From: an uncultured Bacilli bacterium
GTDB lineage: Bacteria; Bacillota_I; Bacilli_A; RF39; UBA660
Reading direction: 5' to 3'
Assembly: GCA_944350495.1 (NCBI GenBank)
Contig: CALVOZ010000004.1
Span: 77,564-141,563, forward strand
DNA: 64,000 bases
The notes below the pieces were generated by a model that saw nothing but the letters and a program-made list of their open reading frames with translations, did not search any database and was not told where the DNA came from. A program made the position numbers and the translations under genes. Within the stretch, counting starts at the first letter, position 1, and the number at the start of each line of letters is the position of its first letter. Of this stretch, positions 59,352-62,251 are shown in pieces.

Positions 59352-61013
59352 TTAAGATAAAGCTTTAGCAGTGCTATCTTGTTTAATTGCCATTGCATCA
59401 TCATCAAAATTTAAGTGAACAAATAACCCTTCATGAACACCTCGTTTAATTCTTTCAGTTTCTAAAGAATTAAATTTTGTTAAACAACGAGCTACACTAG
59501 CTCGATACGTAGATGCTGTAATATCTGCAGCTTCCCATACTTTATCTTTATCTAAATCCAGGAATAAGCCTAAATGTCCTGTTACATTATCATCTTTATA
59601 AATAAATACGTTGCAGTAATTAATTTCATAATCAAGATATTCAATACCAATAATCATCTCATCAATTACTATTGGTGGAATTGTTGATTGAATTGTTTTA
59701 TCACCAATTTGATAAAAATTTTTATTAGTATCTTTTATAGCTAATTTTGTAACCATTCTATTTTTTACTTTATTAATTATCATATTAATCTCTTCTAAAG
59801 TAGCAAATTTATATTGATAAGCATAATATCCAACTAAATATGGGAATAGCTCATTTACCATCGCATCATTATAATTACTAATAGTTGAGTATGAACCTCC
59901 ACGCATAATACCATCAATCATATTGGAAATTCTGCCCAATAACGGTCCACCTATTACAATATTTTTATCTTCTGATAACTTACCGTTTTGTTCATACAAG
60001 ATACGTTGAATACAATTATGTGCTTGTAATCTTAACCAACGAAGATAATTGTCTTTTGTAATATCCTCTTCACGACTTGAATAAACATATTCTCCATCTT
60101 CATAATTGATACGATATCTTTCAAATTCTTCACGGTCAAACGTAATTGGCATCATGTGCATCAATTCTTTTAAATAATCATCATTTTCATGAATACAATA
60201 AATAGCAAGCGCTACTTGATAATCCATATTACGTTCAAAAAACGAATGATTTAGTTTAGTTTCTTTAAATCTAGTTAAAACAAATTTATAGAATCCATCA
60301 AAATTTAATTCTTTATCTTTTGAAGTTCGCGCATACTCATAAATTAAAGAACTTAAATGTCTAGTATAACTTCTATCTTTCATCTCTTTTATTATTCCAA
60401 TACCATTTTTATGTGGTAAAAATGGATTATTTAAAGTGATACTATCACAAATTATTGGGTCATTAACACACAAATCTAAAAGTCTTTCAGCGCTTTTTTT
60501 ATCGTATACACCTACACATAATGCATCAGGGCCAATTAAATTTGGAATTCTTAAATGATGCTCAATACTATTATTAGCTAAAATTTTGATTAATTCTTCA
60601 CCCACTGATTTTATACTATTATGTAAAATAGAAAAATGGAGCCATATCATATCATCATAACAAAATTCTCGGTATGTTTGAGTTGAGACTATATAGTTGT
60701 GATAATGTACATACTTATAGTTAGGTGTTGAAGTTGTACTACCATTTCTATCAATTAATTCTAATTCAATGCTCCCCTCAGAACTAGCTCTTTTTCTTGT
60801 AAAAGTAGTATTTTGATGATTGATAGTTATTGCTAAATTTATTAAATCCGCAGCAATTCTTTCAACCGATTCGCCAATATCCTGACGAGCGTAACTATAA
60901 GTAGAAAGCAAATTAAAAATAGCAGTCTCACTTGGTAAATTATTTCTACGACTATTTAATTCGCGAAAAAAACTATCAATTTCTTCTAAGCAAGCTTTAT
61001 TATAACTATCCAT
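59352..61013 (-). CDS. Hypothetical 553-aa cytoplasmic protein
   Basis: No TM and no identifiable catalytic motif. It is preceded by a coupled 44-aa ORF and its own extended -10 promoter, and flanked by terminators. Confidence 0.55.
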   Translation of the reverse strand: MDSYNKACLEEIDSFFRELNSRRNNLPSETAIFNLLSTYSYARQDIGESVERIAADLINLAITINHQNTTFTRKRASSEGSIELELIDRNGSTTSTPNYKYVHYHNYIVSTQTYREFCYDDMIWLHFSILHNSIKSVGEELIKILANNSIEHHLRIPNLIGPDALCVGVYDKKSAERLLDLCVNDPIICDSITLNNPFLPHKNGIGIIKEMKDRSYTRHLSSLIYEYARTSKDKELNFDGFYKFVLTRFKETKLNHSFFERNMDYQVALAIYCIHENDDYLKELMHMMPITFDREEFERYRINYEDGEYVYSSREEDITKDNYLRWLRLQAHNCIQRILYEQNGKLSEDKNIVIGGPLLGRISNMIDGIMRGGSYSTISNYNDAMVNELFPYLVGYYAYQYKFATLEEINMIINKVKNRMVTKLAIKDTNKNFYQIGDKTIQSTIPPIVIDEMIIGIEYLDYEINYCNVFIYKDDNVTGHLGLFLDLDKDKVWEAADITASTYRASVARCLTKFNSLETERIKRGVHEGLFVHLNFDDDAMAIKQDSTAKALS

Positions 61014-61014
61014 A

Positions 61015-61149
61015 TTACTTTTCCTCTTCTAACGGCATACTTTTTAAACTAGGTTGCTCGGTACTTTCTTCATATTCAACTTTTTCTTGATAATTTCCAT
61101 CTAAAATAATATCAAAATTTTCATAATCATCAAAATTTTTATCTTTCAT
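61015..61149 (-). CDS. Small acidic ORF (44 aa) translationally coupled to the 553-aa gene
   Basis: MKDKNFDDYENFDIILDGNYQEKVEYEESTEQPSLKSMPLEEEK. RBS GGTGA 6 nt upstream. Its TAA is 1 nt before the downstream ATG. Extended -10 TGATATAAT (rc of 61165-61173). Confidence 0.3.
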   Translation of the reverse strand: MKDKNFDDYENFDIILDGNYQEKVEYEESTEQPSLKSMPLEEEK

Positions 61150-61181
61150 ATTATCACCATTTACATTATATCATTTGTAAT

Positions 61182-61209
61182 AAAAAAAAGTAAACACAGT
61201 TTACTTTTT
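61182..61209 (-). terminator. Terminator after the 347-aa gene
   Basis: agtaaac-aca-gtttact hairpin with flanking A and T runs, abutting the stop at 61208-61210. Confidence 0.6.
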
Positions 61210-62251
61210 AATATTTAAGTATTCTTTGAAACACTTCTCTTTTGTCTTCCATTACCATAGTTACATACTCTTTTTCACTAGAAGTAAGAGCAATTTGCGT
61301 TGTTTTACCATCAAAACGCTCTAATATTTTTTTATATTCATCGCCGTATGCTAAACGTTCAAATATTGGAGTACATATTTTAGGATAATCAAAATACAAA
61401 GAAAATAAATTTGGATCTAATCCATCATAATCTCGTACTGACGCTTTATATGCTTCTTCAGATGTCTTAAATTGTGTATCTGCATTATATGAAAGTAACG
61501 GTGCCCAAACAGTACCTTTTTTATATTTAAAAATATCGCGGTGATCAACACCAAAAATCCTTTCATTATCATATATTTTATTTGGTCTTAAACCTTTTAA
61601 TTTTACTTGTCCAAATTGGTCTAGCACTAAATGTTCACTGCCAATTCCTTTTTTTAGTAACTTTGAAGGATGTAATCTCTCAGTATATGAAACCCCTGGA
61701 ATTTTAGGAATATTTACGCATATATTGTTTGGATTGCGGTCTTCTTGATGAGTCCAACCATCACCTATGAAAAACGTTATTAGAAATAATTCCATTTGAG
61801 TATAGTCCTCTTCAGCCAAATAATGCTTAAAAAATGTTAACAATGTTGTTAAGTCATACCCTCCAAAGCTTATTAAATCAGATATTTGTGCATTCATTAA
61901 TTCACTTATTAAATAATAGTTATGCTCGTTATCTTGAAATGATTCTGATAACAATCCACATTTTGTTACCTCATTTCTTGATTGTAAAACAGGATCTTGA
62001 ATTCTTACATACGCAACACGATAATCAACTGTATCAAGCCCTAATACCTCACGGCCAAATATACTAAAAAATTGTTCTGTAAATAATCTAAAATCGCTTC
62101 TAATTTTAAAATATTGGAGCTTACCATCTATACAATACCAATCTGGTTTTTCTTTTAAATAATCCTCATTAAGCGCGACTTGTTTTTTTAATTTATAAGT
62201 AGGTATTCTAGGAGCACGGTAATGTGTTATAACGGCTTCATTTAATTTCAT
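61208..62251 (-). CDS. Hypothetical 347-aa protein (weak kinase-like catalytic-loop resemblance)
   Basis: GWTHQEDRNPNNICV (His/Asp...Asn pattern) and LVLDQFGQV (DFG-like) are suggestive but not diagnostic. Strong RBS AAGGGGGA. Confidence 0.5.
   Translation of the reverse strand: MKLNEAVITHYRAPRIPTYKLKKQVALNEDYLKEKPDWYCIDGKLQYFKIRSDFRLFTEQFFSIFGREVLGLDTVDYRVAYVRIQDPVLQSRNEVTKCGLLSESFQDNEHNYYLISELMNAQISDLISFGGYDLTTLLTFFKHYLAEEDYTQMELFLITFFIGDGWTHQEDRNPNNICVNIPKIPGVSYTERLHPSKLLKKGIGSEHLVLDQFGQVKLKGLRPNKIYDNERIFGVDHRDIFKYKKGTVWAPLLSYNADTQFKTSEEAYKASVRDYDGLDPNLFSLYFDYPKICTPIFERLAYGDEYKKILERFDGKTTQIALTSSEKEYVTMVMEDKREVFQRILKY

Follow-up and report, generated by a model that had tools for sequence, protein, structure and literature searches.

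In the genome of an uncultured Bacilli bacterium, three orphan open reading frames (ORFs) of 347, 44 and 553 aa, all on the minus strand, sit between the genes for PFOR and RlmN. They are the subject of this study, and all positions given here refer to the stretch of 64,000 nucleotides that was analysed as a whole (contig CALVOZ010000004.1, positions 77,564 to 141,563), hereafter called the window. As detailed below, the 347-aa gene and the 44/553 pair are two independently inherited units, the peptide and the large protein forming the sole conserved unit; we somewhat favor a reading in which the first is a stand-alone kinase of the HipA/CtkA fold and the second a degenerate copy of a Firmicutes gene pair encoding a small peptide and a lyase-fold protein.

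Read in the direction of transcription, the PFOR gene is followed by a terminator-like hairpin and T-run (62311..62332, −), picked up by a terminator scan and by RNA folding (−13.5 kcal/mol, z −4.9), which separates the 347-aa gene from PFOR transcriptionally. The 347-aa gene comes next (61208..62251, −), and directly after its stop codon lies an AT-rich hairpin with a T8 run (61177..61209, −; −7.8 kcal/mol, z −3.2, none of 200 shuffles folding as well), its probable terminator. Then follow an extended −10 box, TGATATAAT (61165..61173, −), the gene for the 44-aa acidic peptide (61015..61149, −) and, translationally coupled to it, the 553-aa gene (59352..61013, −), with a spacing of 1 nt between the stop of the former and the ATG of the latter (TAA-T-ATG). 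A further AT-rich hairpin and T-run after the 553-aa stop codon (59303..59337, −; −9.4 kcal/mol, z −3.4) is the probable terminator ahead of the rlmN promoter, whose own TGATATAAT box (59291..59299, −) lies outside the unit and marks its boundary. The lengths of the three ORFs, the acidity of the 44-aa product and the 1-nt gap are exactly those given by the initial annotation of this region, a model's reading of the sequence, and its proposal of terminators on both sides agrees with the hairpins and T-runs that we found after the PFOR, 347-aa and 553-aa genes. It had also pointed to a promoter shared with rlmN: the box is present at both sites, but no meaningful link follows, as the window holds 10 copies of it against 4.9 ± 1.9 expected, 9 of the 10 on the coding (minus) strand, which makes TGATATAAT the generic extended −10 consensus of this organism and not a signature linking two promoters. 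Relatives keep a TGnTATAAT box at the position 5' of the 44-aa ORF.

No profile library recognizes any of the three proteins. Pfam, NCBIfam, PADLOC and PHROGs gave no significant match for them or for another window protein of 774 aa, and nothing significant appeared when 53 members of the 347-aa family and 12 of the 553-aa family were scanned singly; the genes are, thus, as unannotatable as they had been said to be, and none was assigned to a well-known housekeeping family. Transmembrane-like stretches, already reported as lacking, were looked for in the orphan proteins and none was found.

The gene order around the three ORFs is kept in every lineage that has a 553-aa gene: PFL, PFOR, (347), 44, 553, rlmN, PP2C, PrkC, rsgA, (774-aa orphan), rpe, tig. 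As this arrangement is syntenic in relatives and the GC content (0.25–0.31 over the region) shows no break, the region was not recently acquired, which is what had been concluded earlier from its host-like composition; phage and plasmid collections hold no homologue of the 347-aa protein, of the 553-aa protein or of a canonical superfamily member (see below for the superfamily). The idea that the three genes form a single module, put forward by the initial annotation, has to be given up. In one lineage (loci L016 and L017), PFOR leads straight into the 44-aa gene and a 551-aa version of the large gene, and the kinase is cleanly absent at this site (L016 1–760, L017 3885–4128). Conversely, four other kinase lineages have no superfamily core within 6–8 kb of the kinase, and the flanks of 28 other superfamily loci (12 with ≥5 kb) contain no 347-type kinase, PrkC kinase domain, PP2C, rlmN or rsgA. 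No neighbor gene recurs among those 28 loci, except where close relatives share synteny. It is only in the genus-level clade of the window that kinase and cassette adjoin, and hhalign finds the 347-aa and 553-aa families unrelated. Since the kinase is missing at one cassette site and is never found near the other superfamily loci, nor the reverse, the two units are independent.

The 347-aa protein has an atypical-kinase fold of the HipA/CtkA (HipA/PI3-4K-like) type. It belongs to a family of 105 homologous clusters (40–100% identity), all from metagenomes and metagenome-assembled genomes (MAGs) of uncultured Bacilli/Firmicutes, and all unnamed or "hypothetical". The faint kinase-like catalytic loop that had been noticed in this protein turns out to be a DRNPNN loop (D171-R-N-P-N-N176) that is invariant across the family, as is Y227-D228: in 53 sequences down to 41% identity, K49, E59, D171, R172, N173, N176 and D228 never vary. 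According to a DSSP-based assignment, K49 lies on the strand spanning residues 44–50 and E59 on the next helix, and by analogy of motifs (not superposition) these candidate catalytic residues would follow the pattern expected of an active site, one that seems to be intact, with K49/E59 as the beta3-Lys/alphaC-Glu pair, D-x-N-x-x-N as the catalytic loop and D228 as the metal-binding Asp. In HipA, the catalytic-loop and Mg-binding Asp residues are D309 and D332, and in HipT, they are D197 and D219 (PMC10653801).

At 8–13% identity to HipA, HipT and CtkA (JHP940), the protein differs from these kinases by about 35 extra residues between the catalytic loop and YD and by a further helical stretch of about 85 residues at the C-terminus. 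Neither HipA_C nor any other kinase profile matched the window protein or any of the 53 family members at E ≤ 1, and the family profile found no kinase among PDB sequences. Its genomic setting differs as well. Unlike CtkA of H. pylori, the gene is not on an integrative and conjugative element or a type IV secretion system island; it is vertically inherited under strong purifying selection. In the window, it is monocistronic between terminators, and in four distant lineages, where it is again a single gene, its neighbor is uvrB, a sortase/MucBP cluster, queH or lspA; no HipB- or HipS-like antitoxin and no helix-turn-helix neighbor accompanies it in any of these five contexts, so that the kinase, lacking an antitoxin partner, is not a toxin. 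HipA-like in its fold, the 347-aa protein, thus, has neither the profile match nor the antitoxin that characterize the HipA toxin family, and we regard its family as a new one of known fold, cytoplasmic, monocistronic and vertically inherited. From the fold and the conserved residues we infer activity and type of substrate: judged by its sequence, the protein probably has kinase activity towards Ser/Thr or a small molecule and plays a regulatory part of the housekeeping type. HipA-fold kinases, therefore, occur as conserved, partner-less housekeeping genes in an uncultured gut/rumen lineage of Bacilli, which shows this fold in a role other than that of persistence toxins. For this region, a module of sporulation or of the spore coat had been proposed, in which a CotH/CotS-like kinase would act with a partner; this is hardly credible: none of the 53 kinase-family members has a CotH or CotS Pfam match, no sporulation genes surround the kinase or the cassette in the syntenic loci retrieved for the window clade, and the supposed partners are inherited independently.

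The 553-aa protein is composed of an N-terminal helical region, a core with a HopA1/LanY-type lyase fold and a C-terminal helical and beta-rich region whose fold is unassigned. The initial annotation had recommended a Foldseek search with its model: HopA1 (E 1.6e-4) and LxmY (E 3.2e-3) rank first, both at probability 1.00, and HopA1/LanY proteins are the best structural matches of the model by two methods. LanY proteins are HopA1-like phospho-Ser/Thr lyases related to OspF and SpvC (PMC9486802, PMC12141560). The HopA1 profile PF17914 matches neither the window protein nor 11 other family members; in one distant relative alone, P0237, a sub-threshold match (19.7 vs. a cut-off of 22.7 bits) covers residues 87–177, inside the stretch of that protein that matches the core profile (residues 92–233), which places the lyase-like fold at about residues 100–260 of the window protein. 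Residues 1–69 of P0237, equivalent to the N-terminus of the 553-aa protein, weakly resemble B. subtilis YhaI (PDB 1sed_A), at a non-significant E of 0.26.

Close homologues of the 553-aa protein are few, with 13 homologous clusters only (45–57% identity), and among 185,579 species-representative genomes, the window subfamily is present in a single one, an uncultured Bacilli MAG. Distant relatives are more numerous: an exhaustive search by profile among 1.84 billion representative proteins (one per 50%-identity cluster) returned 284 of them at E ≤ 0.001, the most distant sharing profile positions ~110–260 only. This conserved core corresponds to residues ~100–260 of the window protein (60234..60716, −). 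The superfamily, previously unnamed and belonging to Firmicutes, splits into subfamily A, the window type, with a C-terminal region of its own of about 250 aa, and subfamily B, with IreB-like repeats.

The 44-aa product has 14 D+E for 5 K+R, a net charge of −9, an isoelectric point (pI) of 4.07 and no Cys. The ORF is conserved in all five lineages with a 553-aa gene, and the closest pair has a ratio of nonsynonymous to synonymous substitution rates (dN/dS) of 0.056 at a dS of about 1.1, which establishes it as a real coding sequence. Beyond the clade of the window, 26 of the 28 superfamily loci have a small acidic ORF that abuts the large gene or overlaps it, with an end falling anywhere from 12 nt ahead of the large gene's start to 25 nt past it; these ORFs are 43–72 aa long (up to ~80 aa in L035, whose ORF has an uncertain start) and carry net charges of −6 to −19. 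As for the two remaining loci, the upstream DNA of one amounts to only 96 nt, and the other, L022, truly lacks the ORF. Among what had been suggested for this region, a small-protein-regulated enzyme pair comes closest, as the coupled 44-aa partner is conserved far beyond the genus. Common to the peptides of subfamily B are MKVxYxGKEIEI, ELDMLT and the motif [LI][ED][DNK]T[MILV][EK], present in one to three copies, and the Thr of this last motif is the sole invariant column in an alignment of 19 peptides. Cys is either absent from the superfamily peptides or single and unconserved.

We then compared the core residues of 123 relatives with those of 14 window-clade sequences, using the numbering of the window protein. 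Several positions are common to both sets: D163 (119 of the relatives, all 14 clade sequences), the N-P-F of positions 196–198 (N in 114, P in 123 and F in 121 relatives; NPF in all 14) and Y227 (106 and 14). Position 155 is K in 113 relatives and K in 9 or R in 5 of the clade (R in the window), and positions 215–217, S, Y and N in 117, 103 and 112 relatives, read S in 11, Y in 10 and T in 12 of the clade. Elsewhere, the clade departs from the rest of the superfamily in all of its 14 sequences: position 124 is K in 114 relatives and W in the clade, position 126 is Y in 115 and H, position 161 is R in 112 and G, position 168 is R in 113 and G, and position 210 is D in 109 and E. The window clade, thus, underwent a coordinated replacement of three basic core residues (K124W, R161G, R168G), together with Y126H and D210E. 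In every locus with an intact K-Y-K-R-D-R constellation and an identifiable peptide, the Thr of the peptide is kept; in the clade with W-H-(K/R)-G-D-G, the equivalent position reads ST, GT, ST, SI and MP, with a Thr in three of the five lineages.

Known lyases offer a possible frame for these residues, K136 of SpvC being equivalent to K219 of CaoY, K104 to R187, R148 to R229 and Y158 to Y236 (PMC9486802, PMC12141560). In canonical superfamily members, the spacing is K-x-Y, a K at +31 and an R a further +13 away, while in SpvC, K104-x-H106 is followed by K136 at +32 and R148 at +12. K124, K155 and R168 of the canonical members, which also keep R161, could, then, by spacing only, parallel K104, K136 and R148 of SpvC. 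If this parallel holds, most superfamily relatives have a Tyr where SpvC-type lyases have their catalytic-acid His, and the corresponding residues of the window clade are W, H, R/K, G and G. LanY and HopA1 are the best structural matches of the 553-aa protein, and its gene adjoins a small peptide gene, but the protein has about double their length, with additional regions at both termini, and its putative basic pocket is replaced. Superfamily proteins are also neither secreted effectors nor fused to kinase or cyclase domains, in contrast to known phospho-lyases.

The presence of a kinase, a small peptide and a lyase-like protein side by side invites comparison with class V lanthipeptide synthesis, in a split form of the dehydratase that makes a peptide of ribosomal origin modified after translation (RiPP): the 347-aa kinase would phosphorylate Ser/Thr of the 44-aa peptide and the 553-aa lyase would eliminate the phosphate, leaving a peptide with dehydro-amino acids. 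We consider this very improbable. With no Cys or one unconserved Cys in the peptides, no lanthionine is possible, and no Ser or Thr is conserved in those of the window clade, given the ST/GT/ST/SI/MP variation. The 553-aa protein has no APH-type LanK partner, its adjacent kinase being of the HipA type, separately terminated and not co-inherited (absent at the L016/L017 site and adjacent to none of the 28 other superfamily loci). No protease, transporter, cyclase or immunity gene lies nearby, the neighbors being PFOR, rlmN, PP2C and PrkC; the chromosomal position is syntenic and housekeeping-like, with no biosynthetic gene cluster, and the window protein misses three conserved basic core residues.

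The genes of the block evolve at very different rates, and dN/dS ranks them as their identity to the window copy does. Using approximate NG86 estimates, to be read as near saturation given a dS of about 1, dN/dS is 0.04–0.08 for rlmN (88–95% identity to the window), 0.08–0.21 for PrkC (77–83%), 0.10–0.18 for the 347-aa gene (71–75%), a range similar to that of prkC, 0.27–0.56 for the 553-aa gene (45–57%) and 0.06–0.65 for the 44-aa gene (52–57% by tblastn, where found); PP2C is 89–94% identical. The fast evolution of the 553-aa protein next to an RlmN at 88–95% identity is one of the features that could be expected of a toxin–antitoxin-like or defense module, in which a small, acidic, labile inhibitor would neutralize a large effector. 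Typical of the type II organization is a small acidic ORF placed upstream, its stop codon abutting or overlapping the start codon of the next gene; the distribution of the window subfamily is narrow (1/185,579 species representatives), and HopA1 and OspF act as effectors in other bacteria. This explanation nevertheless appears improbable to us: the synteny is stable within a housekeeping backbone in five lineages, the base composition shows no anomaly, the window clade no longer has the putative active-site residues, PADLOC and PHROGs gave no match, no mobile-element genes were seen in the flanks, and neither the window protein nor a canonical member has a phage or plasmid homologue.

We, thus, come back to the reading of the cassette as a degenerate copy of a peptide/lyase-fold gene pair. 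In canonical pairs, an acidic peptide of 43–72 aa is made together with a protein of the HopA1/LanY/OspF fold; most likely, the Thr of the peptide would be phosphorylated by a kinase encoded elsewhere, and the phospho-Thr would dock in the basic pocket as a substrate or pseudosubstrate, the phosphate then being eliminated or the phospho-peptide being held as a regulatory plug. In the window clade, three basic residues of this putative pocket are replaced, the Thr is left unfixed and another C-terminal region stands in place of the IreB-like modules; for these three reasons, the pair of the window is most likely, as far as sequences can tell, a non-catalytic or re-tooled complex of protein and peptide that keeps binding but not classical phospho-elimination. 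Its differences from LanY systems extend to the peptide, which in the window clade has no Cys and no conserved Ser or Thr.

Several points weigh against this reading of the two units. For the kinase, D171 and D228 are 57 residues apart, compared with 22–23 in HipA and HipT, and the roles given to K49/E59 (DSSP-based) and D228 come from motif analogy. For the large protein, the mapping onto SpvC and CaoY is made by spacing and secondary-structure order only, and PDB profile searches with the 553-aa family, the core and P0237 found no solved lyase; HopA1 itself is not known to act as a lyase. Purifying selection still acts on the 553-aa protein, and some residues are invariant in its clade alone (K209 and N195, and almost so H219); the active site may, then, have been rebuilt, and "non-catalytic" is not established. 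One also has to keep in mind that the loss of the basic residues and the relaxation of the Thr are a single evolutionary event and carry no statistical weight. Finally, with a pI of 4.1 for the peptide and of 5.5 for the 553-aa protein, both partners are acidic, so that simple electrostatic pairing does not explain a complex; global charge complementarity between the two is absent in the window clade.

The C-terminal modules of subfamily B connect the superfamily to another field. Pfam IreB (PF06135) is matched by 6 of 100 relatives, P0240 reaching 31 bits for a cut-off of 25, with two others just below. A hidden Markov model (HMM) iterated from the matching segments detects IreB-like modules, one to three per protein and located C-terminally of the core, in 86 superfamily proteins out of 137, with the consensus EKEELLEEAIKATYKKYGKEQAKNALEEYLKTGNYNYFTRDNNLRERL; carriers include P0240, P0223, P0153 and P0226 (e.g., L020 3081–4559). 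The YLKTGNxxYxTRDNNLR part of the module consensus resembles the loop region of IreB/ReoM, but in the relatives, the modules are internal domains of a large protein and not a free phosphoprotein of ~90 aa. The same iterated HMM found no such module in the window clade or in full-length intermediate relatives. One that we had suspected by eye at about residues 320–400 of the window protein was rejected by the iterated HMM and by hhalign, in which the profile of 145 module instances met the subfamily-A profile at a probability of 0.4%. In the literature searched, we found neither the architecture combining the core and an IreB-like module nor a paper naming IreB together with HopA1. No ireB gene is present in the window or the fetched loci; a match to YLLTGYPALIPR at window positions 1409–1444, obtained with an IreB probe, lies in no ORF and is due to chance. 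One of the 100 relatives matches Pfam PF00217, the catalytic domain of ATP:guanido phosphotransferases of the McsB/arginine-kinase type (E 8.8e-8), and may be a kinase-domain fusion; it was not located when sought by a signature motif of arginine kinases.

IreB is a substrate of the PASTA kinase that binds MurAA and MurAB (PMC12077105), and the 553-aa protein and its superfamily could, on this basis, be a component of the PASTA-kinase (PrkC/IreK)–PP2C–IreB–MurA pathway, acting on or binding phospho-Thr proteins. In each of the five lineages that make up the clade, rlmN-PP2C-PrkC directly follows the 553-aa gene, an arrangement that may reflect, weakly, a link to Ser/Thr phospho-signaling; IreB-like modules occur in the 86 proteins just mentioned, one of them above the Pfam gathering score; and in one lineage, that of P0237, a superfamily gene stands two genes upstream of murA (TIGR01072, 535 bits vs. 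a cut-off of 393). In this locus (L022 9001–12645, and likewise L023 and L024), a gene for a KAP-family NTPase is followed by P0237 (623 aa), an abutting 124-aa ORF and murA, whose product is the enzyme that IreB regulates; P0237 has no upstream acidic ORF. The domain fusions and the vicinity of PrkC in one clade and of murA in one lineage amount to three weak pointers, and membership of the pathway seems rather doubtful to us: the window protein has no IreB-like module, its clade no longer has the basic pocket, between the 553-aa gene and rlmN come a terminator and a separate promoter, and PrkC is adjacent in one clade only and murA in one lineage only, the other loci (12 with ≥5 kb flanks) having neither.

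Equally tentative is a broader proposal, which we consider unlikely as a whole, that the cassette is a new endogenous phospho-Thr-lyase-type system of Firmicutes: the Thr of the peptide would be phosphorylated, plausibly by a PASTA kinase recruited through the IreB-like modules, and then irreversibly processed, or held, by the HopA1/OspF-fold domain, which would feed into PrkC–IreB–MurA control, the window copy being a pseudo-enzyme derivative. If true, the cassette would be, among phospho-Thr-lyase-fold systems, the first example outside secreted effectors and lanthipeptide synthetases. Phospho-Ser/Thr lyases have been described in two settings, as secreted effectors that irreversibly disarm host MAP kinases and in lanthipeptide dehydratases, and the cassette brings to this phospho-lyase theme a new variation, marked by an unusual dedicated peptide and by IreB-like fusions in relatives. 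The existence of a chromosomal, non-mobile family of this fold points to an unrecognized irreversible or pseudo-substrate step in bacterial Ser/Thr phospho-signaling, with a possible connection to the PASTA-kinase pathway, which governs cell-wall synthesis and beta-lactam tolerance. At the practical level, three window genes that no profile library recognizes gain a domain-level annotation.

A few observations concern the remainder of the window. About 1 kb (960–2040) contains no ORF of ≥120 aa and no Rfam match at the gathering threshold. The 774-aa gene (52586–54910, −), the second profile-less gene of the block, lies between rsgA and rpe and is the fastest-evolving gene of the block, with 34–39% identity to the window and a dN/dS of 0.51–0.73; relatives have a protein of 765–773 aa at the same position, and in L014 and L015, only a 200-aa ORF is called in the rsgA–rpe interval. 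The PP2C ORF, taken from its first start codon (TTG at 58309, −), overlaps the end of rlmN by 59 nt (58251–58309); as the PP2C called in relatives is 244 aa long and begins just after rlmN, the true start in the window is probably downstream of this TTG. A ribosomal protein L21 leader is present at 17976–18045 (−, 53 bits), and an RNase P RNA of the bacterial class B, which fits a low-GC Firmicute, at 21699–22037 (−, 296 bits).

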